Below, in pieces: positions 1 to 61,250 of a stretch of 64,000 nt of DNA. The stretch comes from a virus (Duplodnaviria > Caudoviricetes). The notes beneath the pieces are model-generated. The model worked only from the letters and a program-made list of their open reading frames with translations. It did no database searches and was not told the origin of the DNA. Position numbers and translations under genes: made by a program. The stretch lies in IMG/VR virus record IMGVR_UViG_3300020037_002952, positions 1-64,000 of that record; one strand, written 5' to 3'. The stretch's first letter is position 1. The number at the start of each line of letters is the position of its first letter.

Positions 1-2143
1 ACGGTACCGCCCCATCTGTCCTACATAAACATCCAGCAGACCCGGCAAAAACGGTATGTCCACCATCTTTTGTCTTACGGTTCCCCCAAAGCATCTCTGC
101 TCGGTGTGTGTGGCCGTGAATTGTGGAGATACCTTTAGCAAGATACTTATTAGCTGTTCCACCTTTTGTCGAACTGTATAAATGCCCGTGAACAAAGCGC
201 AAGCCATCGTTCGCCCAGAATTCTGCGTCAGGATAACCTTCTAAATATTCCATTCCGTATTCTTCAAATCTGCATAGATATGAAACTGAGTTAACTGGCT
301 TGTCTTCACCCGAGCGAGCAAGGCCCACTAGATTTGGGAGTTTATCCGTCAAGACGTTTGTTATACGACAGTTGCCTGTGAGGAATGGATGATTATCCCT
401 TGACGCAAAGAATCTTTCGTTTTCGACAACCAAACACCATACCTTTCCGGTATACTCAACTTTTTTCATTGTGGACGCATCAAGCCTTGTTGCTGGAATA
501 TCTGATATATTCAATCTCCAATGAGTTGGGGCGTATTCAGTTAAGGTACAAGAATAACCATTAAAAGTAAACAACTCTTGTAACTCGAATCGAGTCTCCC
601 TAGAATGATAAATTACCCCTGACTTTGTGCCCCCGGTTGGCATTGTTCCATCAGTATATAGCATCTCTTTATAAAAGATATCAAATTGTCGGCGAGACAG
701 ATCTGCTAAAACTAAAGGAAGCTTTGTTTTATTATCAATAATAGCATTAATCTTAGGGGACGACTCTGCGGATACTCTAATATCAAGCGAAGTTTGTGGA
801 GCTTTAAGAAGTTCCTTCCCGCAAATTTCTGTTATATCTCTATCTCTTTCTGTAAAACCATAATTAATATCCAACCGATCAAGTAAACCGAGAATCCTTT
901 GAGCTTTAGACTTGGCTTGATAGAAGCACCATTTTCCAGTGCTGGAGACATAAGAGTCCGTTAAACACCAAGCTATAAGTCTGATTTCATCATCTGTTAT
1001 AGATGGGTCGTCCTTACTTGTGTTTACCACAGAGGTCGGGATTATAGTCCCTGTCATTTCTTCAGCATATGATTCTTTCCATGCGATTGTACCCTTACTA
1101 TATTTATTTGGTTCATAGCCGACAATTCTATGCCCAGGGGTGACTAGCATGTTAAGTCTCCCACCAGAAGAGTACATATCTCCAGAATAATCATAGGATA
1201 AGATTTGTTTGATCGGCAGCCATATTGGCTCTTGGTTATCATCACAGGATAACACAAGTTCGCCCTCAGCCAATTCGTCATAACTTTTTAATCCATTATA
1301 CGTCATTGCCAAAGTGTCTTCACTTAAGCACTCGTGATTTCCTTCTAGCCAAACATTTGTCGAGTTTGGCGCAAGTTCTCGCTGAATTTTTGCTTCAAGT
1401 CCACCACGATCAATGGTTAATTGTGTATTTTGTAGGTAGCCTGGAGCACTTCTATGTGTGCTGAATTCGGGAAAATCTAAGTTGTCTCCTTGATTAACAA
1501 TAAGATCAACTCCGTGTTGTTCTTCTAAGAATAGAATAATCTGGTGGGCTACATCAATAGCTGCTTCATCTTGAGTTGTCGTGAGAGTGCCCCGAGAGTC
1601 CCTGTGGAAGCCGATCTGCATATCCGGTAGTGATATGCCCAACTTCCATCCAGATGGCTTAGAGCGGCTCTTAGAGGGCTTAGAAACGATTTTAACATCA
1701 GGTATCGTTGCTCGTTCGTACTCAACGGCAATATCAGGAATAATCTCAATACTTTGTCTAACCGTTTCACGAGGAACCTGAGTATTGACTCCATCGATCT
1801 TTTCCCAACCCCAACCTTCAGTCTTCGTGAAGCTGGACTTAGAAGCCTTCATTCCTTTGGAAGCTAGCTCTGTGAGAACTTCTTCGATATAACCAAGTTC
1901 ATTATCTTTTAGTTCGAGGCGAACCTTGCCAGACCAATTGCGCTGCCCATACTTTGCGAGCGCAGTAACTTTCACTGGAGGCAAACCATGTTTGTCGAGA
2001 TATTCGACGATCTGTGTCGCCCGTAAACCCTCGCTCCACAATTGTTCTAGAAGAGCTAATTCTGGATGCTCTGAGGGATTTACTAATTTAGTCAATGATT
2101 TGCCTTCCGTAGGGCGACATGTCTCTATGTCGTTTATCGACAT
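1..2143 (-). CDS. Metallophosphoesterase (calcineurin-like) with one intein; 3' end lies outside the window
   Basis: Manual translation (absent from the ORF track because it is open at the edge): MSINDIETCRPT...LPDMQIG...NQGDNLDF...WLEGNHE|intein|CRIT...FVHG...IHGHTH. Canonical D-x-Q/H, GDxxD, GNHE, HG and GHxH motifs. ATG at 2143 overlaps the upstream stop (TAATG). Confidence 0.9.
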   Translation of the reverse strand, partial: MSINDIETCRPTEGKSLTKLVNPSEHPELALLEQLWSEGLRATQIVEYLDKHGLPPVKVTALAKYGQRNWSGKVRLELKDNELGYIEEVLTELASKGMKASKSSFTKTEGWGWEKIDGVNTQVPRETVRQSIEIIPDIAVEYERATIPDVKIVSKPSKSRSKPSGWKLGISLPDMQIGFHRDSRGTLTTTQDEAAIDVAHQIILFLEEQHGVDLIVNQGDNLDFPEFSTHRSAPGYLQNTQLTIDRGGLEAKIQRELAPNSTNVWLEGNHECLSEDTLAMTYNGLKSYDELAEGELVLSCDDNQEPIWLPIKQILSYDYSGDMYSSGGRLNMLVTPGHRIVGYEPNKYSKGTIAWKESYAEEMTGTIIPTSVVNTSKDDPSITDDEIRLIAWCLTDSYVSSTGKWCFYQAKSKAQRILGLLDRLDINYGFTERDRDITEICGKELLKAPQTSLDIRVSAESSPKINAIIDNKTKLPLVLADLSRRQFDIFYKEMLYTDGTMPTGGTKSGVIYHSRETRFELQELFTFNGYSCTLTEYAPTHWRLNISDIPATRLDASTMKKVEYTGKVWCLVVENERFFASRDNHPFLTGNCRITNVLTDKLPNLVGLARSGEDKPVNSVSYLCRFEEYGMEYLEGYPDAEFWANDGLRFVHGHLYSSTKGGTANKYLAKGISTIHGHTHRAEMLWGNRKTKDGGHTVFAGSAGCLCRTDGAVP
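371..1330 (-). mobile_element. Intein (320 aa) with LAGLIDADG endonuclease in the metallophosphoesterase
   Basis: Starts CLSEDTLAMTYNG, ends YTGKVWCLVVENERFFASRDNHPFLTGN, +1 Cys. LAGLIDADG-like helices LIAWCLTDS and EMLYTDG. Confidence 0.9.
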
Positions 2144-15719: not shown

Positions 15720-16219
15720 GAAGCGATAAGTGGGATAAGAAACTTAACGTTCTAAGATCTAAGTATCCACAAATAACAAATATCAACTGGGGCGAAATCC
15801 TAAGAGATGAACCAGAAGTTTTTTGTGGAGTTGTTGGAAAAGTAACTGTTCCAGACAATACTAAGAAATCTGAAATTCAAACATTTCAAGGGAACGTACA
15901 GTTCGCTAGAGTATCCAACTCAGATTACTCTGAGCTAGAATTTAAAAAAGCTTTCACTATTATTTACAGCAGATATCATGACCCACTTATAGAGAAAACT
16001 AATCTCTCCGAGCGTCACTTGATCGCTCTTATGGAGGGGAGTATAACTCCTACATACGAAGACATGGAAGAGATAGCTCAAGCTATTGGCAGGAATCCAT
16101 CCTTCTTTATGGAGTATAGAATCGCTAAAATTTTAGCGTCTATTGATTCGTATCTTATGGTTAGTCCAGAAACTACTTCTGTTTGGTATAACAAAGTTTC
16201 AAAAAATGAGTCTTTATGA
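15716..16219 (+). CDS. XRE-like HTH protein
   Basis: KTNLSERHLIALMEGSITPTYEDMEEIAQAIG. Confidence 0.6.
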   Translation: MRSDKWDKKLNVLRSKYPQITNINWGEILRDEPEVFCGVVGKVTVPDNTKKSEIQTFQGNVQFARVSNSDYSELEFKKAFTIIYSRYHDPLIEKTNLSERHLIALMEGSITPTYEDMEEIAQAIGRNPSFFMEYRIAKILASIDSYLMVSPETTSVWYNKVSKNESL

Positions 16220-19200
16220 TTTATGAACAGTTAACAGATAATGAGTGTTACCTTTATGCTTTAACTCAAGATGAGTCTGGATTAGATCTGGCAGAGTTTT
16301 GTTATATTGACGAAACTTCTGAAGACGGCTGTTTCCGTGCTTGGCCGATCCAGTACGCTTGGTGGCGCAAAAAAGACCAAAAGCAAATTTCCGCTGGGTC
16401 TAGATCTGTAGGTAAGGCTCTCGCAGTAGATACCCCTATCTTTACTTTAGATGGCTGGAAGCTGATGGGTGATATTGAAGAAGGAGACTTTGTTCTTCAC
16501 CCCTCAGGTGCCCCTAATTGCGTTATAGAAACTCATGAAATTTATGACGATCGACCATGTTACCAGATTGATTTTAGTAATGGTGGTCGTATTACTGCTG
16601 ACTCGAATCACTTATGGGTTGTATGGGATGATTTAAATAACCCCCTCATGGTGACAACACACGCCTTATACAAAAACTATTCCACATATAAAATCCCAGA
16701 ACAACAAACAGCTTGGGCTGGACACATCGCTCCTAAGGCTGTTGAAAGCTGGATCACTATAGATTCAGTTATTAAAGTTGAGCCTCAGCCAACAAGGTGT
16801 ATTACAGTCGAGTCGGATGACGGGATGTTCCTCGCTGGCCAAGCTCTTATCCCTACACACAATAGTTTGAGTATTAAGTTCAGGGCTTTCGCCTTCCCAT
16901 TTTTGAATCCTGGCGAAGAAATGATTGTAACCGCTCCAGAGAATATCCACCTTGAAGCTGTTACAGACAATATCGAAACCCTTTATGTTAATAATAAGCT
17001 AGCAAGTGAGATGATCGTTGGTGGTCGAGGCGGCATCACGCACAGGCCATTCAGAATGAACTTTAGTAATGGTGCCCGTATTATGGGCCGCATCCCGCAA
17101 CTGGATGGATCAGGGATTAAAGGCTGTTTTGAAAAAGGAACCCTAGTGCTGACCCGTAGAGGCTGTATCCCGATTGAGGCCGTAGAGGTCGGGGACATCG
17201 TTTTTACCCATCTTGGTAATTGGAAAAAGGTTACACATACTTGGATTTTCCAAGAAGAAACTCCGGTTCGTGTGCAGGCAAATAGACTCTCCGAAGGGGT
17301 AGTGTGTAGCGGGATAGAACCATTTTGGGCTAGATATGGCAATACTTTGAATATGAAGCAAAATGAACCTGAATGGTGTTTTGCTAAAGATCTTGCAGTT
17401 CAAAAAAACCGCCGTCATCGCTGGAATTTACTCTCTCCAGCCGAGTTCCCCGAAGAAACTCAACCAGCATTTCCGTTTAAATATGACGAAAAGGAGGTAG
17501 AAACACTTTATTGGCTTTTTGGTCTATATCAAGCCGAGGGTTCTTCTTCTATTAAATCTGGGCAGGTTACATTTTCGGTACACGAAGAAGAAGTAGATTG
17601 CGTCAAATCTGCAATCAATCGCATTGGTTATAATGCCGGAGCAACGCGTAAAAAGGGTCTAGGTATGGACGTCTACTTTTCGTCACAGCCCTTTATAACA
17701 TTTCTCAGAGAGGAGTTCAAAGCCTGTAAAGAAAAAACTATTCCCGTATGGATGTATGGTGCCCCAAGAGAACTTAAGGAAGCTTTCTTCTCTGGCGCTC
17801 TCTATGGCGATGGATGCTGGCGACATGAAAGCCTAAACGAGTATATCACAGTGATACGCTCTCTAGCTTACGAAATGAAAATGTTCGCTCAATCCCTAGG
17901 GTATGTAGCCTCAGTACACAGAAATAATACTTCTACTAATTTTGGAGATAATGGTTGGTATAGAGTTTTGGTGAGCGACCAGCCAGAATCTAGTAATTTC
18001 ATCGATGGGCACATTATGAGTGGCGTTCAAAATGTCGAAGAGTTAGCCCCAATGACTGTCTATGACCTCACTGTTGAAGATGATCATAGCTTTACGGCCA
18101 ACAGTGTGTTTGCTAGAAATACTCACCCCATCTGGCTTGAGCAGGATGAGGCTTGTTTCCCAGGAGAGACTCTTGTTTTTACTCATAAAGGACATATAAG
18201 AATCGATGAGATTGAAATTGGGGATTATGTATTAACCCATAAAAACCGATGGAAAAAAGTCCTAAATGTTTGGGATCGTGGTGAGAGAGAAACTATTAAT
18301 GTTAAGGGATTTATAGTCCCGACGCCCACTAGACTCATCAGTAAAACTATTAGGGTCACACCTAATCACAGGTTCTACGCCAAAAAATCTCAATATAGTC
18401 CGACCGAATGGATTCGTGCTGATGAACTTAAGGGATGCCTATGGTCGTATTTTGTTGATGGCAGACTAGTTTTTGGTGCCGTTGGAAAAGAATATGAATT
18501 GGACCCAGAAATTTGTAGAGTTTACGATATCGAAGTTGAAGATGACCATTCATTCGTTGCTGAAGGAATTGTTGTTCATAACAGCGACTACCCAGAAAAG
18601 GGTTGGGACGAAATTGTCGAAACCGTAAAGGTTCAAAATCCTAAAGCTCGTTGGCGAGCCCATGGAGTAACAAGAGGCGTTGGAGATAAATTTGACGAGA
18701 AGATCTCTGGGTCAGAATCAGAGTGGGCAGTTATCCGTCTGCCAGCTATGTATAGACCAAACTGGACTGATAACGAACGTAAATCGAAGATCGAAGAGTA
18801 TCACGGTTATGATTCTCCTAACTACAGAAGAAACATTTTAGGTCTTCCTGGTGACAATAACTCGCCTATGTTTGTTTTGCATAGGATTATGGCTAATGTT
18901 GTTCTTGATCTTGAAGATAATTATAATGCTTTCGAATACTATAATACTTTTATTGATGAAGCGATGATTCGTGAAGTTGACGATATTTTAGAACTTATCG
19001 ATATACCAGCTTCTCATTCAAGTTACAGTAGATTTTGGATCGGAATGGACTTTGGCTGGACGCAAGCACCATCGGCTATTGCTGTTTTCGCTGAGATAAG
19101 AAATCCAAAGAAAGATGAAACTTCACTTAAACTGTTAACTAAAATTATTCTTAAAAGAGTAGCCCCTATTGATCAGTTTAAAGTTATCATGCACCTTATG

Positions 19201-19704
19201 GAAGTCTACCGACCTATTGCTTACGCAATGGACGGTACTGGTGCTGGACAACCGGTAGTTAGTCTTTTAGAAAATAAAGTTGAAGAAGATCCGTCTACTC
19301 AGCATATGTTTGATAGGATTAAGTCCTATAACTTCAGCCAGAAAGTTATTGTCGGCTTTGATAACACTATTAAAATTGATGAGCGTAAAGTTGATGGTTA
19401 TATGGATGCGGCTATTTATCGTCCATTTCTAGAGGCTTCCGCTGATGCCATGAGAGTTTTAATTGATAATACTAGATTTATGCTTCCATACGATAAGGAA
19501 GTTATTGGTGAGCTTCAGTCAACTCCTAAAAATACCCGCACAATGCCCGACGCCTATGGTAAATCTACTCATAAGAAGACTGGACAGCATACATTAGATG
19601 CTATGAGAATGGCGGTTATGGCTTATTCAACTACTCACATTGATGAGTTCATCGCCGCACACCAGAAGATCTGGGTCGCCCCTTCCATGATTTTCCTTGA
19701 CTAA
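16216..19704 (+). CDS. Terminase large subunit with three inteins (spliced about 538 aa)
   Basis: Walker A GSRSVGK|S, Walker B LEQDEA|S, nuclease IGMDFG, DGTGAG, HTLDAMR. Confidence 0.93.
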   Translation: MIYEQLTDNECYLYALTQDESGLDLAEFCYIDETSEDGCFRAWPIQYAWWRKKDQKQISAGSRSVGKALAVDTPIFTLDGWKLMGDIEEGDFVLHPSGAPNCVIETHEIYDDRPCYQIDFSNGGRITADSNHLWVVWDDLNNPLMVTTHALYKNYSTYKIPEQQTAWAGHIAPKAVESWITIDSVIKVEPQPTRCITVESDDGMFLAGQALIPTHNSLSIKFRAFAFPFLNPGEEMIVTAPENIHLEAVTDNIETLYVNNKLASEMIVGGRGGITHRPFRMNFSNGARIMGRIPQLDGSGIKGCFEKGTLVLTRRGCIPIEAVEVGDIVFTHLGNWKKVTHTWIFQEETPVRVQANRLSEGVVCSGIEPFWARYGNTLNMKQNEPEWCFAKDLAVQKNRRHRWNLLSPAEFPEETQPAFPFKYDEKEVETLYWLFGLYQAEGSSSIKSGQVTFSVHEEEVDCVKSAINRIGYNAGATRKKGLGMDVYFSSQPFITFLREEFKACKEKTIPVWMYGAPRELKEAFFSGALYGDGCWRHESLNEYITVIRSLAYEMKMFAQSLGYVASVHRNNTSTNFGDNGWYRVLVSDQPESSNFIDGHIMSGVQNVEELAPMTVYDLTVEDDHSFTANSVFARNTHPIWLEQDEACFPGETLVFTHKGHIRIDEIEIGDYVLTHKNRWKKVLNVWDRGERETINVKGFIVPTPTRLISKTIRVTPNHRFYAKKSQYSPTEWIRADELKGCLWSYFVDGRLVFGAVGKEYELDPEICRVYDIEVEDDHSFVAEGIVVHNSDYPEKGWDEIVETVKVQNPKARWRAHGVTRGVGDKFDEKISGSESEWAVIRLPAMYRPNWTDNERKSKIEEYHGYDSPNYRRNILGLPGDNNSPMFVLHRIMANVVLDLEDNYNAFEYYNTFIDEAMIREVDDILELIDIPASHSSYSRFWIGMDFGWTQAPSAIAVFAEIRNPKKDETSLKLLTKIILKRVAPIDQFKVIMHLMEVYRPIAYAMDGTGAGQPVVSLLENKVEEDPSTQHMFDRIKSYNFSQKVIVGFDNTIKIDERKVDGYMDAAIYRPFLEASADAMRVLIDNTRFMLPYDKEVIGELQSTPKNTRTMPDAYGKSTHKKTGQHTLDAMRMAVMAYSTTHIDEFIAAHQKIWVAPSMIFLD
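16417..16863 (+). mobile_element. Class 3 mini-intein (149 aa) in the TerL P-loop
   Basis: Starts with Ala (ALAVDTP); WCT triad: HLW, TRCITV, PTHN; +1 Ser. Confidence 0.88.
17125..18120 (+). mobile_element. Intein (332 aa) with LAGLIDADG endonuclease in TerL
   Basis: CFEKGTLVLT...VYDLTVEDDHSFTANSVFARN, +1 Thr; FGLYQAEG and FSGALYGDG helices. Confidence 0.9.
18154..18582 (+). mobile_element. Mini-intein (143 aa) in TerL
   Basis: CFPGETLVFT...VTPNHRF...VYDIEVEDDHSFVAEGIVVHN, +1 Ser. Confidence 0.92.
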
Positions 19705-20043: not shown

Positions 20044-22758
20044 ATGGAAATGGGTAGCTTCTACGAAGACTTTGATTCTGGTACAGATGAGATTTTTTTA
20101 GTTAACCAATCTGGATTAGAAACAGCCGAGGTTATCCAGTCTCTCCAAGAAAACATCCCAGAACTTGCGAGAATCAACAAATGGATTGACTCGTGGTCTG
20201 GAAGCGCTACCCGATCCGGTGGAGTCCGAGAACAGAATAAGTTCGTTATTCCTGAGGGCGTGTTTAACCAGTTTAAGGTTGCGGCTGAAGCCGTCAAAGT
20301 TGACGACGTTGTTGGTAACGCTGTAGACACAACAGAACAGTTAGCTTTCAAAACCATCAAACTTGAGTGTGGCGAAGAAGAAGAAACGAATATTGCTAAT
20401 CAGATTTTAGATAATCTAGATTTAGAAAAAAGAATGAGAGAGATTTGGCGTGAACTTTTCACTATCTCTCAATGTTACCCTGCTGTCATTTGGGAGCGTA
20501 AAGACTTCAAAGTTAAAGGTAATTCGCCTTCTGGCAAAAAGAGCAAGAAGGTTTATAAGCAAGTTATGGTGCCGAAAGGTATCACTCTTTTAGATCCGTG
20601 TAAGATTATCCCCGTTGGGAATTTTATGTTCGGTCAAGAAAGATTAGCTTATATTGCTGACATAGGGGAGAAGGCTCAATTAGATAAGACTCTTGCTGGG
20701 GACAATAGTAGTGATCTTATTGTGAACCAACTGTTTGAAGGTCCGTATAATCCAGATATGCATGAACGCCAAGAAATCGCTAAGATTACTGGCGATACTA
20801 CTTCTAGCAGCCGAATGTTCCTTCTTAAAGAAGATGCTGTTTGGCGGATTACTTCATCTCGTCCGGCTTACCAAAGATTCGCTGATGTCAGAATGCTTTC
20901 CGTTTTCCCTCTTCTAGACATGAAGCATAATCTTCGAGCGTCCGATCGGGCGGATATTCTCGGTAACCTTAACTGCATTATTCTTGTGAAGAAGGGTAAC
21001 GATGACCACCCAGCGGAACAGCCTGAACTTGCCCAAGTGGCGCTTCAGATGAAAACTTCAGCTAAAGTCCCTATGATCATCTCTGACCATAGACTTGAGA
21101 TTGAGATTCTTACTCGTAAGACGGATAACGTATTGCGCCCGGAACGGTATAACACGTTGAACTCATCCATTGCATCACGCATGTATCAAACTTTAAATAC
21201 GGGAAACTATTGCGTAACTCCCGATACCGAAATTCTTACTCGTTCAGGGTGGAAAACGCATGACCAGTTAGTTAATGGCGAAGAGGTTTATACCCTTAAT
21301 ATTGATACGGAAAATGGTGAATGGCAGGAAATTAAAGCTGTAAATGTTTTCAATTATGAAGGCGAGATGCTTTCAATGGAATCTTATGGCCATTCATCTA
21401 TGTCAACCCCAAATCACCGTTGGTGGGTTCACGGTCAAATCCAAAAAGACTATAAGAAAACTCATGAGGGCACTTGGAGAACAAGTGAAAGTTTAAAACT
21501 TTTTGATCGCATCCCAATTTGTGCTCCAATGGAAGCTTTCCCAGCGGAAGCTAAATACACGGATGAATTGGTAGAATTAGCCGCCTGGTTTTGGATGGAA
21601 GGACATAGAATGGTCGGCTCACCCAATAGAATCTCTATTTCACAATCGCAAACACATAACCCAGATTACTGCGATAGAATTCGCCTTCTCTTAGAAAAAA
21701 CTTTTGGTCCAGAGGGCAAGGTTGCTGACGGAGGGGTATGGTATCAAAAAAATAACGGTCAAGAATTTCTTGTTAGCGCACATGTTACAGAGCCACTTTT
21801 CGACTTATTTGATCTTGGGCCATCTGGCGTCACCAGCCCAAAGCGTCCCAACTTAGATTTTCTTTATTCCTTAACTAGGGAACAAATGGTAATTTTTGTT
21901 GATACTTGCATTAAGGGCGACGGCCATACGGAGGCATCTGGCCGATCAAAATTAGTTCAAAAAGATTTAAAATCGGTCGAATTATTTGGCCTATGCTTAA
22001 CTATGCTTGGAATTCCCTCTAGAGCGAGGCTTGACAAAAGTAAAGAAGAGTCTGGCGTGTGGGTTGTTGAACTTCTGGAACGACAAACTACGTCTCCGTT
22101 GGCGGCGGCTAGAGAAGCATCTGCAAAAAATAGGAACTCAGCCTCAGTAGAATGGGTCCCTTATTCCGGCTTAGTTTGGTGTCCAACGACCGCTAATGGG
22201 ACTTGGTTTGCCCGTAGAAATGGCAAGGAGTATTTCACGGGCAATTCCTCTGGAACTGGCATGGATGATTCTAATAAGTTGTTTAAGGTAATCGCCTCTT
22301 CCATGGAAGCGAGACGAGACGAGATTCGTGATTCTATCATGACTCATATCATTAAGAAAATCTGGGAGAAGAATGCAGACAAGTTCAAGGGCGAACCAGA
22401 GATGGTTTTCAATCCAAGAAGAGTTGCCCTTGAGTTCAACCCTCAGTTCACTCAGATGATTTATGATCTTTTTATCCGTGGAGACATTTCTCGTGAGACG
22501 ATGCTTGCAGAGCTTGATATCTCCCAAGAACAAGAAGCTGCTAAACGACGTATTGAAGATGATTTATATGAAGATGATTTTGAGCCACGAGTTGACCCAG
22601 GAAAAGACAACATTGCCTTAACTGGAGATCCTAAGGCAGATGGTCGAGCGGGCGGCGGGAACAACAACGGCGGCGGCGGAAATGGTGATGCATTCTTACC
22701 TAATGATACTCAGCCAAAGGAAGACCCGAAAGACAAAAAGAAGAAAACTGACGATTAA
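20044..22758 (+). CDS. Portal protein with one intein (spliced about 559 aa)
   Basis: Position after TerL and before protease/scaffold/capsid; size; GDISRETML motif and acidic/Gly-rich tail. Confidence 0.8.
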   Translation: MEMGSFYEDFDSGTDEIFLVNQSGLETAEVIQSLQENIPELARINKWIDSWSGSATRSGGVREQNKFVIPEGVFNQFKVAAEAVKVDDVVGNAVDTTEQLAFKTIKLECGEEEETNIANQILDNLDLEKRMREIWRELFTISQCYPAVIWERKDFKVKGNSPSGKKSKKVYKQVMVPKGITLLDPCKIIPVGNFMFGQERLAYIADIGEKAQLDKTLAGDNSSDLIVNQLFEGPYNPDMHERQEIAKITGDTTSSSRMFLLKEDAVWRITSSRPAYQRFADVRMLSVFPLLDMKHNLRASDRADILGNLNCIILVKKGNDDHPAEQPELAQVALQMKTSAKVPMIISDHRLEIEILTRKTDNVLRPERYNTLNSSIASRMYQTLNTGNYCVTPDTEILTRSGWKTHDQLVNGEEVYTLNIDTENGEWQEIKAVNVFNYEGEMLSMESYGHSSMSTPNHRWWVHGQIQKDYKKTHEGTWRTSESLKLFDRIPICAPMEAFPAEAKYTDELVELAAWFWMEGHRMVGSPNRISISQSQTHNPDYCDRIRLLLEKTFGPEGKVADGGVWYQKNNGQEFLVSAHVTEPLFDLFDLGPSGVTSPKRPNLDFLYSLTREQMVIFVDTCIKGDGHTEASGRSKLVQKDLKSVELFGLCLTMLGIPSRARLDKSKEESGVWVVELLERQTTSPLAAAREASAKNRNSASVEWVPYSGLVWCPTTANGTWFARRNGKEYFTGNSSGTGMDDSNKLFKVIASSMEARRDEIRDSIMTHIIKKIWEKNADKFKGEPEMVFNPRRVALEFNPQFTQMIYDLFIRGDISRETMLAELDISQEQEAAKRRIEDDLYEDDFEPRVDPGKDNIALTGDPKADGRAGGGNNNGGGGNGDAFLPNDTQPKEDPKDKKKKTDD
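21211..22245 (+). mobile_element. Intein (345 aa) with LAGLIDADG endonuclease in the portal
   Basis: CVTPDTEILTRSGW...TPNHRW...LAAWFWMEG...TCIKGDG...VWCPTTANGTWFARRNGKEYFTGN, +1 Ser. Confidence 0.92.
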
Positions 22759-48643: not shown

Positions 48644-51600
48644 ATGAGATTTTATCCAGATATGTTCGAGAAGGTAAAATCTGGTCACTTCTTTGGCCAA
48701 GATAAGCCAAATGGACGAGTTACTGTTGAGCCATTGTGGGAGTTAAATTCTACTGGGGCAGTTTACGGCAATAGCGTAAGAGGTCCTTATAGATGGTTCC
48801 AGGACGTTACCGATAGTGGCGTTGAATGGGAAGTCCCAAATATTAAGAACATTTCTTGGGATCGTTCCGAAGGCCAAGATATTGCTTCTTGTACTATCAC
48901 GCTTTATAACACTTGGCACGAAGATAATCTTCAGGCTCCAGAGTTGGCGGGACAACTCGGCAAGCCCGGTTTCTTTTGGCCCAAACGTGGACTGGAAGTA
49001 AACCGCTGGAATCAGGTAGCTGGCAAAGGTTCATTTCGCAAAGACGGATTCTGGGACCCCAACTTTAGCTGGCAGAATGTTTTAGTTCCTTATGGTTTAA
49101 TTCGTTGCCTTGATACCGACACCGAGATCCTAACACGGCGCGGCTGGCTACGCTGGGACGAGGTGCTGGAAGGTGACTATGCGCTAGGCATCAACCCCGA
49201 AACCGGATTGTCCGAGTGGCAAGAAATTATAGAGGTCTTTAAAGCCCCATTCAAAGGGCAACTTACTAACCTAAAGACTAAAACACACGACTCGCTTACA
49301 ACAGCAAACCATAGATGGTTAGTAAAAAACCACAAAGACGAATATGAATGGCGCACCACAGAGACTCTTAATGGTCACTCTGAAATCCCGCTAGCAGCGA
49401 CCTATGGTGAAGCTCCCATTGAGAAGGTTTATAGTGATGAATTTGTAGAACTTGCTGCTTGGTACTACACTGAAGGCAGTTCAGATAGACGTGCAATCAA
49501 CGGTGGATATTACAATATTTCACAGTCACCATCAGCCAATCCTAAAACAACACAAAGAATCAGAACTGTCCTCACCGCCCTATATGGCGACCCAGGCCCA
49601 TTAGCGCGAGGAAAAAAGCTTGACCAAGATGCTGTAGACAAAGCGGTCGCATTGTTAAGTAATGGCTCACCAATCAAGAAAATTGCCTTGATAACAGGGA
49701 TATCTCTAGAAACCATTCGACGATGGAAAGTGGGAAAACGTACCCCCCCAACAAAGACGCACGCATGGACTGAACAGACCTACGAATCTGGCAAGTCTAC
49801 TTTTGTTCTGGAAAAATCTATTGGTTTGAAACTCCAAGAGGTAATTCAGACTTATGATAAAATCCCTAGTGCTGAGTTTCTCCTTTCTCTCACGGCTGGT
49901 CAGCTTGATCTTTTTATTGATACATGCCTAAATGGTGATGGCTCACGCTACCAAAATTCAAGCGGCAATATACAAGAAGTTTTTATTCAAAAACACCATG
50001 AACGAATTGCTGCATTTGAGTTCGCCTGCGTTCTGGCCGGACGAGCTTTCCACACTAGAGAACGTTCTGATTCTAGTGTTACAAGTTTACTTCGGACAAG
50101 TTCTACTAGTCCGGTTTCAGCTGCGAAACAGAGTGGGCGTCCCATTAAACAAGTTGACTATGACGATGTTGTTTGGTGCCCTCGCGTAAAACACGCCAAC
50201 TTCTATGCTCGTCGGAATGGTACTGGCTTTTTTACTGGAAACACCTATGAAGGTTACGGCGGACACTCTAACGCATTTACTTTTAAGTCTGTCCAAGAAA
50301 ACCTCGACGATGAATATATTCTTCAAACTGGTACTTGGTTGATTGAATCAATCTCTGCCGGATCAGGTGGCGAACTTGTCTTAAATTGCAAAGACATGGG
50401 CAAACTTCTTATGGATCAGATTTGCTTTCCACCAACCGTTCCTGATGGTCTTTATCCATTAACACATTATCCAGAAGGCAAGTCAGTATTCGACTCTTTC
50501 TTCGGTGCTGTTCCAAAGGCTAGCATCTATGTCTCGCCAGGTTCTATGGGTGAAATTCGTGTAGGTTATGAAAACTCTTCTTTGGACGAAGAGTTTGGCG
50601 TATATAACAAGAGCATCAATGGACATAAACCGGCACATATTAAAGACGGCAACTGGACTACCTATGGATTATCTGAAGCCTATGAAGGTCCGGATGATGA
50701 AACTGTTTGGTGGGAATTTAACGTTGAACAGGAAGTCAGCAAGCTAGTTATTAAGGGCTGGGCTGGTGGCTACGATTGTTGGATTTCCATGTCTAATGCT
50801 GATGATGAATGGCTTGGCACAACGAATGTTCCTGGTACTGGTGACGCCGTTATTCCGGCTGTCCAACACGTAAATATCCCGGTAGCTGTGCCGGATAATC
50901 AGGAACCACTTGTTAATATTGAGATCCCTCACAGATTTAAAGATTTGCCAGCTGGACCAGTCACAAAAACAAAGCTCTTCATTAATAAGATTAGAATTTC
51001 ATTTAGACATCTCTATTACTCAGGTATCCCAGATGCTGATGACCATCAATATCGTGGTGGTATTCGAGATCTTCAATTATTCCGTGAAGGGAATAAAGTC
51101 GATGAGTTTACCGCAGGACCAGATAGCGTTCCTTGGACTTTTGCTATGGGAGCACACCCAACAAGAGGTTATTGGATTATTGATTATAACGGTACCGTTT
51201 ATGGTTTCGGTGACGCCGCTGACTACGATTCTTCAGCATGGGGTCCGGTTCCAATTCATACTGCCCACGCTAGAAATCAAGCCATTGCCATCGAAGGCCA
51301 TCCATCTGGTAAAGGTTATTGGGTCTTAGACCGAATGGGTAATGTTTATGCTTTTGGTTTAGCAGAACATCACGGTGACTATGAAATTGCTTGGCCTGGC
51401 GGTGAAATTTGGGGCGAGTATAGCACTATTGCCGTTGGTCTAGCTGTTACTCATACTGGTGAAGGTTACTGGATTTGTTTCTCTAATGGCACAATCAAAG
51501 GCTTTGGCGATGCTGTAACTTCTGGCACCCCAGCAACAATCCATCTTCCAACAACAACTCTCACACAATATATGGATGCGTATACTGCCGACAGAGAACC

Positions 51601-53500
51601 ATACAATTATTCAGTTCAACATAAAGCAAGAGCCATTGCTGCCCACCCAACTAAAATTGGCTTCTGGGTGACTTCCGGTTCTGGTGAAATCTTTACTTAT
51701 GGCACCGACATGCATCAGTATGGTCAATTAAAGAACCGTGTTTACAATAAGGGTATGGCCAACACTTTCGAGCTCGGATCTGAAGAGTTCGCTACAGCGC
51801 TTGAGTCAACAAAAACTGGTAATGGTTATTGGATTACTTTTGGTTCTGGTCATATTGCGGCATTCGGTGATGCTGTTAAACAGGGGCCGACTTATATTTG
51901 GCCAGTAAACAATGCAAACTTTGATGTGGCTATTGATGAAACAAATATCTTTGATTGGAGTTTCTATAAAGCTATCGTTTGGAGTATGGCAAGAGATCCT
52001 GATGGAACTGGTTTCTGGGTTCTTCTGGCGAGCGGTGACATTAAATGGTATAACGCAGAATTCTGGGGACAACCAGGATACACTGGGTTGACTGGCTATC
52101 GTTGGCATGATGGTTCGTTCGACGGAGACTATACGAAAATTATCAAAGAGCTACTTATGTGGTCTGGCTTTACTTTCTATGATGCAACACTAGAAGACGA
52201 TGAAGCTCCATCAGTTTATGGCGCTCTTGAATCAACTGGCATTAAAACCGACACTTATCTTGAAGCTGATAAATTCGATAAGCGCCCCATTCTTGACATC
52301 ATTAAAGAGTTGTGTGAAGTTGTGGCGTACAGATTTAGAATTCAAGAAGATGGATCGGCTTACTTAAGTTCGCCCAATCTTTGGAGCGCCGGTAACTTCG
52401 ATATTGATGGACAAAGAATCTACGTTGAAGAAGGTACTTACAATAGGGTGGATAAGACTGATCCTGATGCCATCCCATTTATTCCCGTAATTGACGAAGA
52501 GGTTGACCTGTTTAACTACGATACAACCCTTGGCTCAGAATCAATGCGATCTGAGATTATCATTGGCACCGATCAACCAGATCCCAAAAACCCAAAGATC
52601 ACTGGTTTCGTCCGCCATACTCCAAGATCTGGTAGTGAAGAAATCCGGCCAGGAATCAAAACTCTCCGCAACATTCCTCGGGTGGGTCTATGGATTAGCC
52701 AACTCTTCACGAACAAAGAAGAAGCGAAACTTATGGCTGAACTTATCAGCATTAACGCATGGTTTGCTGAGCGAACTTCTTCGGCAACAATTGTAGCCAA
52801 CCCTGCACTATCGCTTGGAGATCAAGTGAAGTTCATTGAACGAAACACTGGGGAGTTCAACATTCACTATATCAGCGGACTTAACTCAAATAACGATCTT
52901 GACTCTGGCGTTTGGACAATGAACACAACGTCACATTGGCTTGGAGACAAAGATAACTGGGTTATTACAGCAAACAACTCTGATGCACCAGGGCCGACTC
53001 GTAGATGGCTGGAAGTCTCAGAACGTGTTGACCGTTGGCAAATCGCCACTAATAGAGAACTAGATAAGGGAGCGAAAGCGAACGGATCTGTCTCTAATAT
53101 TGCTGAGTTTGATGGTGAGTTTGAGGGTGGTTCAATTATTGAAAAAGAAAGTTGGACATTTACTGGCAACCTGACTCTACGTAAACGTCTATTACAAACA
53201 CCAATAACAATCGAGGCGTTGTCACCACCTCTTGGTACCGAGATATTTGTTCTCATCCACGATGTAACAGACTTAGCTAATCCTGTTATTTTCCAAAGAC
53301 TCAATAGCGTTAGTGAAATTACTTATCTTCCAGCACTTGGAGTTAACGGTCAAACTAAAGAATATGTAGTTAAAATACTTGGGACAACAGTTTCCCCTGG
53401 CAACGGAATTTTAAGATTCTATATCACAATTGATAACGAAATTGAACTGTCTGCTGCCGATACATTACTTGTGATCAAAGAACCTCCCGAGCTAACCTAA
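48644..53500 (+). CDS. Tail-tip/hub protein with an intein and a six-repeat GYW beta-propeller (spliced about 1239 aa)
   Basis: Hub-like motifs (CKDMGKLL; IIKELCEVVAY; ANPALSLGDQV); intein blocks; six [TP]xGxG[YF]W....G....FG repeats. Confidence 0.8.
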   Translation: MRFYPDMFEKVKSGHFFGQDKPNGRVTVEPLWELNSTGAVYGNSVRGPYRWFQDVTDSGVEWEVPNIKNISWDRSEGQDIASCTITLYNTWHEDNLQAPELAGQLGKPGFFWPKRGLEVNRWNQVAGKGSFRKDGFWDPNFSWQNVLVPYGLIRCLDTDTEILTRRGWLRWDEVLEGDYALGINPETGLSEWQEIIEVFKAPFKGQLTNLKTKTHDSLTTANHRWLVKNHKDEYEWRTTETLNGHSEIPLAATYGEAPIEKVYSDEFVELAAWYYTEGSSDRRAINGGYYNISQSPSANPKTTQRIRTVLTALYGDPGPLARGKKLDQDAVDKAVALLSNGSPIKKIALITGISLETIRRWKVGKRTPPTKTHAWTEQTYESGKSTFVLEKSIGLKLQEVIQTYDKIPSAEFLLSLTAGQLDLFIDTCLNGDGSRYQNSSGNIQEVFIQKHHERIAAFEFACVLAGRAFHTRERSDSSVTSLLRTSSTSPVSAAKQSGRPIKQVDYDDVVWCPRVKHANFYARRNGTGFFTGNTYEGYGGHSNAFTFKSVQENLDDEYILQTGTWLIESISAGSGGELVLNCKDMGKLLMDQICFPPTVPDGLYPLTHYPEGKSVFDSFFGAVPKASIYVSPGSMGEIRVGYENSSLDEEFGVYNKSINGHKPAHIKDGNWTTYGLSEAYEGPDDETVWWEFNVEQEVSKLVIKGWAGGYDCWISMSNADDEWLGTTNVPGTGDAVIPAVQHVNIPVAVPDNQEPLVNIEIPHRFKDLPAGPVTKTKLFINKIRISFRHLYYSGIPDADDHQYRGGIRDLQLFREGNKVDEFTAGPDSVPWTFAMGAHPTRGYWIIDYNGTVYGFGDAADYDSSAWGPVPIHTAHARNQAIAIEGHPSGKGYWVLDRMGNVYAFGLAEHHGDYEIAWPGGEIWGEYSTIAVGLAVTHTGEGYWICFSNGTIKGFGDAVTSGTPATIHLPTTTLTQYMDAYTADREPYNYSVQHKARAIAAHPTKIGFWVTSGSGEIFTYGTDMHQYGQLKNRVYNKGMANTFELGSEEFATALESTKTGNGYWITFGSGHIAAFGDAVKQGPTYIWPVNNANFDVAIDETNIFDWSFYKAIVWSMARDPDGTGFWVLLASGDIKWYNAEFWGQPGYTGLTGYRWHDGSFDGDYTKIIKELLMWSGFTFYDATLEDDEAPSVYGALESTGIKTDTYLEADKFDKRPILDIIKELCEVVAYRFRIQEDGSAYLSSPNLWSAGNFDIDGQRIYVEEGTYNRVDKTDPDAIPFIPVIDEEVDLFNYDTTLGSESMRSEIIIGTDQPDPKNPKITGFVRHTPRSGSEEIRPGIKTLRNIPRVGLWISQLFTNKEEAKLMAELISINAWFAERTSSATIVANPALSLGDQVKFIERNTGEFNIHYISGLNSNNDLDSGVWTMNTTSHWLGDKDNWVITANNSDAPGPTRRWLEVSERVDRWQIATNRELDKGAKANGSVSNIAEFDGEFEGGSIIEKESWTFTGNLTLRKRLLQTPITIEALSPPLGTEIFVLIHDVTDLANPVIFQRLNSVSEITYLPALGVNGQTKEYVVKILGTTVSPGNGILRFYITIDNEIELSAADTLLVIKEPPELT
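49106..50242 (+). mobile_element. Intein (379 aa) with LAGLIDADG endonuclease and inserted HTH in the tail-tip protein
   Basis: CLDTDTEILTRRGW...TANHRW...LAAWYYTEG...TCLNGDG...VWCPRVKHANFYARRNGTGFFTGN, +1 Thr. Confidence 0.92.
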
Positions 53501-57428: not shown

Positions 57429-60400
57429 TTGGATATCGTAGAATATCTAGAGGAAAAAGGTTGCGAAGTCCGTCCAGCCGGTTCCGGAAACGTAAGAACT
57501 AAATGTTTTTTCCACGGAGAAGAAGGAACGAATCAAGGCAGACTATACATCAACATAGAAGACCCTGACAAAGAAGGATTATTTTTCTGTTTTAGATGTC
57601 AAGAACGTGGTAACATCAATAAGATTCGTCAGCACTTTGGCGATCCAGCAATCAAAACCACTGCGGTTGAGTCAGATAATCCAATCTATGAAACAGCAGC
57701 AAAGTATTATCATGAAAGACTTTTCGAAAATCCAGAGGCTTATAGATACCTCACAATGGAACGTGGCCTAACTGATGAAACAATTATTCAGGCAAGACTC
57801 GGCTGCGCTGATGGGGGCCTCTCCAATCATCTTCTGGCACAAGGATATGTTCCGGAACTTATCAAGGACAGCGGTCTTGTAAACGCTTATGGACAGGATT
57901 ACTTTCACGACAAAGAGATCATTTTCCCATACTTAAAATTTGGACGTGCGGTTCAATTACGTGGCAAAAAGATCGGCGGCATAACAAAGGGTCTACAGGG
58001 CGTACAGACAATGCTGTACGGTACAGACTCAATGATTGGCGAACAAACCGTGATGCTGGCGGAAGGCGAATGCTTTCCTGGCGACGCCCAAGTTCTCACT
58101 AGGGATGGATGGGTATCTTTTGAAGATCTCGGAGATCAGGAAGTTGCTCAAGTCGATGAATCGCTACAAACAACATTTGTAAAGCCAATAGCAAAAATTG
58201 AAAAAGAATTTAATGGCGATCTGGTTGAATACAGCAACTCTCAACGTTTTTACTCCTTGACAACCCCCAAACACAATATGGTCGGATGGCGAAAAGTAAA
58301 TGGCAAAAGGGCATGGGCGAAACGAACCGCAGAAGAAGGGTTCCCCCATAACTACTCTACCCCAAGAATTGGTCTTATTGATGGGCCAGGGGTTCCAATT
58401 TCTAATACACAAATCCGATTTGCTCTTGCCGTAGCGGCTGACTTTTCTATTCGAGAAGGGGTAGGGTCACGCTATGTCCATGCTGGATTCCAAAAAGAGC
58501 GGAAGATTCTAGCAATCCAAGAAATATTGGAAGAGTTGGGGATTCCGTATAAAACTGCACCATACAAAACGAAAAAGGGAATCTATATACATTTCCGTTT
58601 ACCAGACAGTTACTCAGACCCAGAAAGTCCGCTTTATGTAAGCAAATTACTGTCTTGGTCTTGGATCTCAGAAATGAGTTTAGAGCAAAAAGAATTTGTT
58701 ATTCGGGAACAGGCTTTTTGGGACGGGAACCATGTACGAGATCGCAATCAATTAGAATTTTCTTCAAAACATTACTCTGAGGCAGAGTGGATGCAGGCAA
58801 TGTCTTCAACCGCTGGCTACTGTTCAACAATCATGCCCCGTTCTAACCAATTTGGCGATTGGTATAAGGTTAGCATTCTTCTGGACAAGCAAACCACTAA
58901 CTGGTTATCGCTTAACAAATCTAAAAAGTACGTTCCCTACAGCGGACAGGTGTATTGTGTGACGGTCCCATCAGGAATGATTTTAGTTAGACAGGATGAA
59001 TGTGTTAGCGTTTCCGGCAATTGCGATACGCTCACTCTTCATCAAATGGGATTTACTGCGGTAGGCTTACCGGGAGTTCATACTTGGAAAGACGAGTGGA
59101 CCGAAGACTTTGAAGATGTTAAACGAGCGTATATTATCTTTGATCAGGATGCTGCCGGTCGTTCTGGCGCAGAAAAACTTGCTGGCAAACTCGGCCCCAA
59201 AGCAAGAATTGTCGAACTTCCCAAAAAAGGAATTGATATTAACGATTGGTATGTTAAGTACGGTAAGCAATCAGAAGATTTTGAGTTCCTGTTCAGCAAA
59301 GCAAAAGGCGGGATGCTTATTACTGTAGAGATGTCTTATGATCGTTGGCTAGAAGTAGAAGGCAATGATCATTTAGCTGGATTAAGATTCAATATCGCTC
59401 CTCTAGATAAAGCTATGGGCTATGGAATGCTCCCTGGGCAAGTCCTAACAATCATGAGTCGTACAGGTTCTGGAAAGGGCCACCCACTAGACACTAGGGT
59501 GGTCACACCTAATGGTGTACGTTATTGGGGAGATCTTAAGGAGGGTGATTATATCTATGGCAGTCAAGGTCAGCCTACTCAAATAACAAATATCTATGAT
59601 CGAGGAATCTTACCAACTTATAGGGTTTCGTTTACAGATGGAACCAATGTTTTATGTGATGGAGATCATATCTGGAATGTCCACAAAGATACTTGGAAAG
59701 ATCGGTTCGATTTCCGAAATAAAACAACCTCAGAAATCTTAAAAGAGGGTATTTTGACCATCAAACATGGTGACAGAAATTCCTATAGGTTTAATATTCC
59801 GCTTACTCAGCCTATCCAATTTCCCAAAAAAGATTTGAAAATCGGGCCGTATACGATGGGAACTCTTTTGGCTAACGGGCATTTGAGTGGGACTTCTACT
59901 GACTTCAGAACTCCAGACGCAGAAGTTGTCGAACGCATTATTAAAGAAGGTCACGAAGTCAACTCAACTAAGCAATATGAAAATACTTGTCAAGGATATA
60001 GAGTTATTGGAGTAAGAGATTTTGTCCGTCAATACAAAGTTGACGTTAAGTCTGCGGATAAGTTTATCCCAGAGGACTATCTTTTTTCCTCGGTGGACGA
60101 TCGGATAGCTTTACTACAAGGACTTATGGATGGAGATGGGACTAATTTAGGAGTCACTCAAAAGGTTGCGTACTGCACTACTTCTCATCAATTGGCGTTG
60201 GATGTTATTCAATTAGTAAGATCCTTGGGCGGGACAGGAAGATATACTTGTTTGAATAGAGTCGGGGATAATGGTAAAGCATACAAAGATATTCATGTAT
60301 CAATTATGATGTCAGAAAATATTCCACCTTTTAGTACCTCAAGAAAAGCCTTTGTTCCAAAAATCATACGCAAGCATCTTCCACGAAGAGCAATAGTTTC

Positions 60401-61250
60401 TATCGAAAGAGTAAAAGATCAAGAAATTCGTTGTATCACAGTTGATGCGAAAGACAGCTTGTATCTTATTGGCGAAGAAATGATTGTAACACATAATACG
60501 GTGTGGAGCATCAACATGTTCCATCGCATGAGAATGGCGGACCCGAACTTTAATGTGCTCTTTGTTTCTTTGGAACAAACAAGAAATGAATGGTTCGAGC
60601 GTGCTCATAGAATCCATTCATTTTATGAACCGGGCGTTACGATTATTGATACAGTTAATTACTGGAAAAATAATCTACTTCTCATAGATAAGAACAAGAT
60701 TACCGAAGCTCAATTAATTGATTCGCTAGACCAATATACTTACGAGATGGGCAAAGGCCCAGATTTCACTCTCGTTGATTATGTTGGATACTATGCTCGC
60801 TCATTCAAAGGCAACAGCAAAGAACAAACGCAAGATGCCATCATGGGCATTAAAGAAATAGCTAAAGATTTTGAGACTGTCGTCGGTGCTCCTGCTCAGG
60901 CTAACAGAACTGGGGACATTGGAGAAGAGCTAACGCTAGAGATGTTTAAAGATGCCGCCAGTATCGAAGAGACTTCTGATATCGTTCTTAGCCTCTGGAA
61001 TCCAGACATGAGAGTCAAACAGGATTCTAATGAAGAAAATGCTGGAGTAGTTATGCAAAGACTTCTAAAGTCTAGAAATGGTGGAGTTGGAACTTTATTG
61101 AAATACCAATTTGCTCCACTTACTTTAGCTATGGTTTCTCATGATGATCCTCTTTACGATAGGGCAGTCAGAGAAAGAAGTTATGCTATGGCTGGCGATA
61201 GTTGGAAGGTTGCCGTTCAACGGCACTTGACAAACTCTACAGAACTGTGA
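57429..61250 (+). CDS. Fused DNA primase (CHC2 zinc finger + TOPRIM)-DnaB-like helicase with two inteins (spliced about 616 aa)
   Basis: CFFH..CFRC; AEGE|CD; FDQDAAG; SRTGSGK|T; VSLEQ; VDY; AQANR; KSRNG. Confidence 0.93.
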   Translation: MDIVEYLEEKGCEVRPAGSGNVRTKCFFHGEEGTNQGRLYINIEDPDKEGLFFCFRCQERGNINKIRQHFGDPAIKTTAVESDNPIYETAAKYYHERLFENPEAYRYLTMERGLTDETIIQARLGCADGGLSNHLLAQGYVPELIKDSGLVNAYGQDYFHDKEIIFPYLKFGRAVQLRGKKIGGITKGLQGVQTMLYGTDSMIGEQTVMLAEGECFPGDAQVLTRDGWVSFEDLGDQEVAQVDESLQTTFVKPIAKIEKEFNGDLVEYSNSQRFYSLTTPKHNMVGWRKVNGKRAWAKRTAEEGFPHNYSTPRIGLIDGPGVPISNTQIRFALAVAADFSIREGVGSRYVHAGFQKERKILAIQEILEELGIPYKTAPYKTKKGIYIHFRLPDSYSDPESPLYVSKLLSWSWISEMSLEQKEFVIREQAFWDGNHVRDRNQLEFSSKHYSEAEWMQAMSSTAGYCSTIMPRSNQFGDWYKVSILLDKQTTNWLSLNKSKKYVPYSGQVYCVTVPSGMILVRQDECVSVSGNCDTLTLHQMGFTAVGLPGVHTWKDEWTEDFEDVKRAYIIFDQDAAGRSGAEKLAGKLGPKARIVELPKKGIDINDWYVKYGKQSEDFEFLFSKAKGGMLITVEMSYDRWLEVEGNDHLAGLRFNIAPLDKAMGYGMLPGQVLTIMSRTGSGKGHPLDTRVVTPNGVRYWGDLKEGDYIYGSQGQPTQITNIYDRGILPTYRVSFTDGTNVLCDGDHIWNVHKDTWKDRFDFRNKTTSEILKEGILTIKHGDRNSYRFNIPLTQPIQFPKKDLKIGPYTMGTLLANGHLSGTSTDFRTPDAEVVERIIKEGHEVNSTKQYENTCQGYRVIGVRDFVRQYKVDVKSADKFIPEDYLFSSVDDRIALLQGLMDGDGTNLGVTQKVAYCTTSHQLALDVIQLVRSLGGTGRYTCLNRVGDNGKAYKDIHVSIMMSENIPPFSTSRKAFVPKIIRKHLPRRAIVSIERVKDQEIRCITVDAKDSLYLIGEEMIVTHNTVWSINMFHRMRMADPNFNVLFVSLEQTRNEWFERAHRIHSFYEPGVTIIDTVNYWKNNLLLIDKNKITEAQLIDSLDQYTYEMGKGPDFTLVDYVGYYARSFKGNSKEQTQDAIMGIKEIAKDFETVVGAPAQANRTGDIGEELTLEMFKDAASIEETSDIVLSLWNPDMRVKQDSNEENAGVVMQRLLKSRNGGVGTLLKYQFAPLTLAMVSHDDPLYDRAVRERSYAMAGDSWKVAVQRHLTNSTEL
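58071..59021 (+). mobile_element. Intein (317 aa) in the TOPRIM EGExD motif
   Basis: CFPGDAQVLTRDGW...TPKH...FWDG...YSGQVYCVTVPSGMILVRQDECVSVSGN, +1 Cys. Confidence 0.9.
59478..60497 (+). mobile_element. Class 3 intein (340 aa, Gly1) with LAGLIDADG endonuclease in the helicase P-loop
   Basis: GHPLDTRVVTPNG...HIW...LLQGLMDGDG...IRCITVD...IVTHN, +1 Thr. Confidence 0.9.

Follow-up and report, generated by a model that had tools for sequence, protein, structure and literature searches.

Two independent intein lineages at neighboring sites flank the Walker B motif of a phage large terminase

In the phage large terminase (TerL), inteins cluster in the ATPase motifs, Walker B among them, and the ones examined experimentally splice (PMC5050341). 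In mycobacteriophage terminases, seven insertion sites are spread over three terminase types, with TerL1-a and TerL1-b in the P-loop and TerL1-e at Walker B (Kelley et al. 2016, PMC5050341). The TerL described here resembles those proteins in that its inteins also lie in ATPase motifs, comprise class 1 and possibly class 3 types, include a predicted LAGLIDADG endonuclease and are sporadically distributed, and in that splicing is presumed to be essential to the assembly of the motor. However, the mycobacteriophage survey mentions no TerL with two inteins, and here there are three, two of them only 11 residues apart. The terminase family is also a different one, with at least 14 insertion positions mapped by profile among the matches listed, far denser than the seven of the mycobacteriophages.

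A second comparable system is archaeal. In the MCM-a/MCM-d inteins of the Haloferacales and in other multi-intein archaeal genes, several homing sites share one ATPase domain, and the MCM-d and MCM-e sites also lie around Walker B (Turgeman-Grott et al. 2023, PMC10643990; Novikova et al. 2016, PMC4760082). Independent invasions are common to the MCM genes and to the present locus, and the same question of co-homing and mini-intein hitch-hiking arises in both. Unlike the archaeal case, the host here is a phage, the Walker B strand stands alone between the inteins, and one of the two partners has most likely already lost its endonuclease. Our search of the literature found no paper on two inteins that bracket Walker B, nor on micro-exteins so small. 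In this work we address the anatomy, relationships and likely origin of this arrangement, in which two neighboring sites are occupied by two independent, site-specific intein lineages.

The window, which is the whole stretch of DNA that was analyzed, covers positions 1 to 64,000 of an IMG/VR record of 113,329 bp with a CheckV completeness of ~56%. On its plus strand, an open reading frame of 1162 codons (16216-19704) encodes a TerL precursor with a mature extein of 538 aa, and this gene is the single TerL-profile match in the 113-kb record. The N-extein (16216-16416, aa 1-67) ends with the Walker A sequence GSRSVGK (16396-16416), and G72/K73 are invariant among intein-free homologs. The second extein segment (16864-17124, aa 217-303; profile domain at hmm 68-156) ends in GSGIKG, and the C-extein (18583-19701, aa 790-1162) contains the remainder of the ATPase domain together with the nuclease domain and matches the PHROG family phrog_2, terminase large subunit (E 4e-11). 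After removal of the inteins, the 538-aa extein and the TerL of Caudovirales GX15bay, which has no inteins, are 38% identical (E 4e-140), and their alignment is gapless at every intein junction (KG-IHPIWLELDEA-QDFP). The nearest kin in the extein tree, P0125 and P0126, are without inteins, and the C-extein is 67-69% identical to the intein-free TerLs P0124-P0126. GX15bay was the one TerL homolog in the phage collection, where a further 341 records were hit because of inteins inside methylases, reductases and helicases; a scan of IMG/VR with the C-extein gave no confirmed relative. Predicted structures were used because a sequence search of the PDB with intein 2 returned no match and the TerL profile gave a weak match there, to the P-loop of P74-26 TerL. 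The AlphaFold model of the intein-free homolog P0125 (pLDDT 79.6) matches T4 gp17 (E 1e-15) and also the HK97, D6E, Sf6 and P74-26 TerL proteins. Excision of the inteins restores GSRSVGK-S and IWLEQDE, which with the phrog_2 and TerL-fold matches identifies the gene as a large terminase, a protein recognized by Walker A and Walker B motifs, a C-terminal RNase-H-like nuclease and the TerL fold.

The first intein (16417-16863, aa 68-216) is a mini-intein of 149 aa that interrupts the P-loop between GK and Ser, as delimited by the gapless extein alignment, and it matches the intein N-terminal profile (iE 5e-13). Its first residue is Ala, a Trp follows the His of block B by two residues, block F contains a Cys, and the C-terminus reads THN. 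Class 3 inteins are recognized by the absence of Cys or Ser at position 1 and by a triplet of Trp (B:12), Cys (F:4) and Thr (G:5). By eye, these features can be traced in Ala1, SNHLW, RCITVE and PTHN before Ser, with the Cys falling one residue off F:4 in an ungapped alignment. Located at the classic P-loop position, intein 1 is a candidate class 3 mini-intein. In three relatives (P0116, P0021 and P0022), two inteins lie 4-6 extein residues apart at Walker A, and the micro-exteins between them (SLGK, SVGK and SRSVGK) carry the Walker A lysine. Close packing of inteins around the most conserved motifs is thus common in this TerL family. The second intein of each of these pairs begins with Ala, as does intein 1 of the window.

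The second intein (17125-18120, aa 304-635) occupies the site after KG, named site b, and is 332 aa long. Its boundaries follow from the gapless extein alignment. It begins with Cys (C1), ends in FARN and is followed by Thr at +1; these residues, together with a Hint fold and a precise in-frame insertion, make it a class 1 intein. Pfam recognizes Hint_2 at 28.5 bits (cut-off 28.4) and LAGLIDADG_3 at 29 bits (cut-off 22.5). The AF2 model (pLDDT 93.6) places LAGLIDADG helices at residues 122-138 and 215-229, and the corresponding motifs, LFGLYQAEG (17515-17541) and SGALYGDG (17791-17814), retain their acidic residues; motifs and fold together are those of a predicted double-motif LAGLIDADG endonuclease, a type with two such helices, each closed by an acidic residue, in an alpha-beta-beta-alpha-beta-beta-alpha fold. 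Foldseek matches the model to PI-SceI (E 5e-19) and the TliVMA intein (TM 0.74), as well as to the PhoVMA intein, PI-PfuI and I-DmoI, so that the Hint and double LAGLIDADG fold is shared with PI-SceI and other VMA-type inteins.

Two histidines normally assist the first and third steps of protein splicing. Intein 2 has neither, as Glu65 stands at the expected His (B:10) in its block B (CSGIEPFW, 17305-17328) and Arg is its penultimate residue (G:6). Of 80 family inteins, 77 have His in the block B column, and the exceptions (Glu, Glu and Gln) are found in the three-member clade of intein 2 alone, in which the penultimate residues are Arg, Arg and Ser. The other two members are same-site orthologs, P0007 (68% identity) and P0005 (60%), neither of which has a site-c intein, and a region-limited search added no further member to the three. 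The assisting histidines are usual in inteins and not obligatory (PMC4031507, PMC6333167); inteins that splice without one or the other are cited there, namely the Tko CDC21-1 group (in PMC6333167) and those of Chen, Benner and Perler 2000 (in PMC4031507). As in intein 2, the block B His is absent from the Tko CDC21-1 group. Intein 2 differs from that group in that its penultimate His is missing as well and its block B residue is Glu. Given the absence of both histidines from its sequence, splicing of intein 2 may be slow, conditional or context-dependent.

The replacement of both histidines, together with the fragmentary state of the record, could be read to mean that intein 2 no longer splices and that the TerL allele is decaying within a genome that is defective or fragmentary. 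We consider this quite improbable. The frame of 1162 codons is open, the fold of intein 2 is predicted with confidence, and the three orthologs, at 60-68% identity, all keep C1, the terminal Asn and the +1 Thr while sharing the same His-less block B; moreover, the natural inteins cited above splice without one or the other histidine. Splicing of all the inteins in this gene can instead be inferred from the intact frame, from the conserved termini, and from the fact that TerL is essential and only a single copy was seen, although the missing ~44% of the genome could hold a second TerL.

Between the second intein and the third lies the micro-extein THPIWLEQDEA (18121-18153, aa 636-646), which gives a weak but separate profile domain (hmm 154-166). 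Its Asp and Glu are invariant in a 30-sequence alignment of intein-free homologs, and in the P0125 model they are preceded by a predicted beta-strand at IWLE. Since a strand followed by an invariant Asp-Glu pair occurs in a model that matches terminases, the segment represents the Walker B strand and the catalytic pair. The original prediction had placed three inteins in TerL, with Walker B alone on an 11-residue extein between an intein of 332 aa ending in FARN and one of 143 aa; the translation agrees exactly, and this anatomy is correct.

The third intein (18154-18582, aa 647-789) sits at the site after DEA, named site c, and is a canonical class 1 mini-intein of 143 aa without an endonuclease. 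It matches Pfam Intein_splicing (36.1 bits, cut-off 35.8) and Hint_2, and every expected feature is present: C1, the TxxH of block B (VTPNHRF, 18355-18375), the VVHN end, Ser at +1 and restoration of the host protein upon removal. Among solved inteins, that of Spl DnaX (7CFV) is matched at E 1e-7, and the CDC21-1 intein aligns with intein 3 across block B. Like the class 1 mini-inteins of Spl DnaX, Mtu RecA and gp41-1, with which it shares C1, TxxH, HN and the +1 Ser, it is an ordinary mini-intein, here derived from endonuclease-bearing site-c inteins of ~360 aa. Its sister is the 361-aa endonuclease-bearing site-c intein of P0006 (72% identity), and the presence of the endonuclease domain in that sister means that intein 3 most likely lost its own.

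The splicing domains of inteins 2 and 3 are similar, and the original prediction took this similarity for a sign of local duplication. In that case intein 3 would be a shortened derivative of intein 2, or intein 2 would derive from intein 3. The similarity itself stands: the two share motifs at both ends (CF..GTLV.T and VYD..VEDDHSF.A) and are matched by BLASTP over 52 aa (42% identity, E 2e-11) and over 46 aa (46%, E 4e-8). A recent duplication within this genome is nevertheless extremely improbable. In a maximum likelihood tree of 80 inteins over 114 splicing-domain columns, each groups with same-site inteins of other genomes, with intein 2 joining P0007 and P0005 in a site-b clade (support 100/99) and intein 3 being sister to the site-c intein of P0006 (80/85); forcing inteins 2 and 3 into one clade costs 119 lnL units and is rejected (AU p 0.001). 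All 20 other site-c and site-c' inteins score higher against intein 3 (86-162 bits) than intein 2 does (84 bits). By tree, AU test and BLAST ranking, then, the two are not each other's closest relatives. Their identity on splicing-domain columns (37.6%) falls at the 84th percentile of the site-b/site-c pairs of the family, and a DNA repeat search between them found no long repeat, the best likeness being 30-nt stretches at 67-73% identity. Duplication is further opposed by the 60-68% orthologs of intein 2 at the same site in other genomes and by the unlike catalytic make-up of the two, since intein 2 has ARN and no block B His whereas intein 3 has TxxH and HN. Among the ten resolved tandem pairs, site-b and site-c inteins of the same protein are 33.0% identical, and those of different proteins 33.1%, which gives no sign of duplication, nor of selection for dissimilar neighbors.

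An older connection between the two lineages deserves separate mention. The clade of intein 2 could descend from a site-c or site-c' intein that moved 11 codons upstream, which would make inteins 2 and 3 distant paralogs whose divergence predates this genome. Intein 2 has a mean identity of 39.5% to the c/c' inteins and 29.7% to other site-b inteins, although the short c/c' branches inflate this identity. The inteins nearest to its clade from outside are likewise c' and c inteins, and a branch of the free tree unites the clade with both, but at a support of just 33/85, and constraining the 56 site-b inteins to a single group gives a tree of equal or slightly better fit (AU p 0.545). In addition, inteins of the same type as intein 2 occur in P0005 and P0007, neither of which has a c intein. 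This ancient site switch is therefore a possibility to be kept in mind, although we think it rather unlikely.

The wider family was surveyed with the best 120 of 218 longer homologs (680-2007 aa) and with 120 shorter homologs of ~540 aa, mostly intein-free, from a second search. Among the matches listed, one intein is present in 69 proteins, two in 30, three in 17 and four in 2. Site b and site c, the latter with its variant c' directly after DE, are recurrent insertion sites, and wherever b and c are both filled a micro-extein of 10-11 residues remains. Across these 118 intein-bearing homologs among the matches listed, site b alone is occupied in 46, site c alone in 12, and both in 10, with two more resolved later. 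The extein tree (215 TerLs of metagenomic origin, 376 columns) was confined to C-terminal profile columns because hmmalign of whole precursors dropped the short extein pieces between inteins. On this tree, occupancy requires 43 changes at site b and 20 at site c, and the 11 doubly occupied proteins require 11. The survey of empty, single and double occupancy that the original prediction had proposed thus shows that b, c and both recur, the double state through 11 separate changes. No association between b and c was found on the extein tree (sign test, median p 0.51). Mini-inteins make up 17 of 111 inteins in multi-intein TerLs and 3 of 69 in single-intein TerLs (Fisher p 0.027, with relatedness ignored).

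Several observations concern the residues around these sites. Among the empty alleles P0125-P0234, site b is followed by Thr in 26 of 95 and site c by Ser in 38 of 95, so the nucleophile needed by an incoming intein is often already present. These residues could be either footprints of past occupancy or standing variation. Canonical splicing requires Cys, Ser or Thr at +1. Among the matches listed, 45 site-b inteins end in Ser-His-Asn (P0009, P0016, P0020, P0025, P0026, P0037, P0040 and P0057 include such inteins), and in 34 of the 45 the +1 residue is not a nucleophile: Ile in 18, Gln in 6, Val in 4, Leu in 3, Met in 2 and Ala in 1. The +1 residue is Thr in all 11 other site-b inteins, and Ser or Cys in all 22 site-c/c' inteins. 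Shifted boundaries were tried for the Ser-His-Asn inteins of the homologs and rejected, as the agreement with the KG-xHP of intein-free alleles is lost with any displacement. To our knowledge, type A bacterial intein-like domains are the only precedent for ligation without a +1 nucleophile. These domains ligate through aminolysis (PMC4031507).

Intein sequences are also found elsewhere in the record. The intein N-terminal profile has eight matches, all within the window, whereas the other 49 kb of the record have none. TerL accounts for three of the eight, a portal gene for one, a primase-helicase gene for two and other reading frames for two. Just 3' of TerL, a portal-like frame of 904 aa (20044-22758), for whose host protein Pfam returned no family, contains an intein of 345 aa (21211-22245; CVTPDTEIL...FTGN, followed by Ser; iE 9e-11). 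The Toprim/DnaB-like primase-helicase (57429-61250) has intein N-terminal matches near 58071 and 59487 and a LAGLIDADG_3 match. The last two lie near 49106, in a frame of 1618 aa with a resolvase-type HTH (48644-53500), and near 1330, in a minus-strand frame at the start of the window (2-2143).

Taken together, sites b and c are probably separate, recurrent homing sites that were invaded independently and whose inteins splice independently, their spacing being a by-product of homing and not a regulatory device. The sites, after KG and between DEA and Ser, are 33 bp apart and flank the Walker B codons, and each has its own intein lineages. In the window allele, intein 2 is a LAGLIDADG-bearing member of the small site-b clade, and intein 3 is a site-c intein whose endonuclease has most likely since been lost. 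Each Hint domain would fold and excise alone, probably in N-to-C order during translation, and with intein 1 the three splicing reactions would yield one 538-aa TerL with Walker A and Walker B intact. The tight spacing would arise as homing endonucleases aim at the most conserved DNA of the gene.

The anatomy alone could suggest a functional switch, as a catalytic motif is isolated between two Hint domains that are ~38-44% identical, and the unusual active site of intein 2 could slow its splicing. Pairing of the N-terminal part of intein 2 with the C-terminal part of intein 3, as the original prediction supposed, would excise Walker B from the product, or an obligatory order of splicing would gate TerL maturation. 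We regard such a switch as very improbable. The tandem of b and c arose ~11 times with unrelated pairs and at a frequency as expected by chance, so no special function is needed to explain it, and the similarity of neighbors is unbiased in either direction. Translation of intein 2 is complete, and its folding possible, before the C-terminal part of intein 3 has been made; P0005 and P0007 have the same intein without a c neighbor; and a Walker-B-less subunit would probably be harmful in a pentameric motor. It is just as improbable, in our judgment, that the His-less intein 2 splices conditionally and gates TerL by joining Walker B last, or that cross-pairing releases a Walker-B-less TerL as a dominant negative.

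Under independent invasion of the two sites, the persistence of intein 3 may be tied to its neighbor. The predicted endonuclease of intein 2 would drive homing at site b, and because the sites are just 33 bp apart, intein 3 would usually be copied along when intein 2 homes into an empty allele. A mini-intein beside an endonuclease-bearing intein must depend on co-homing, if it homes at all, and in Haloferax two neighboring endonuclease-bearing inteins homed together poorly (PMC10643990). Hitch-hiking of the endonuclease-less intein 3 on the homing of intein 2, as the original prediction proposed, is plausible, with weak statistical support from the higher share of mini-inteins in multi-intein TerLs.

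In this phage, two Hint domains that lie 11 residues apart, or 4-6 at Walker A in its relatives, must fold and splice without mutual interference. The tandem cassette accordingly offers a naturally occurring test of how orthogonal inteins are and of minimum extein length, with relevance to multi-fragment protein ligation, and the clade of intein 2 is a further case from nature in which both assisting histidines are missing. The TerL family as a whole, with its many insertion positions, its roughly 11 independent double occupancies around Walker B and its enrichment of mini-inteins in multi-intein genes, represents a ready data set on whether endonuclease-less inteins persist through co-homing with a neighbor.
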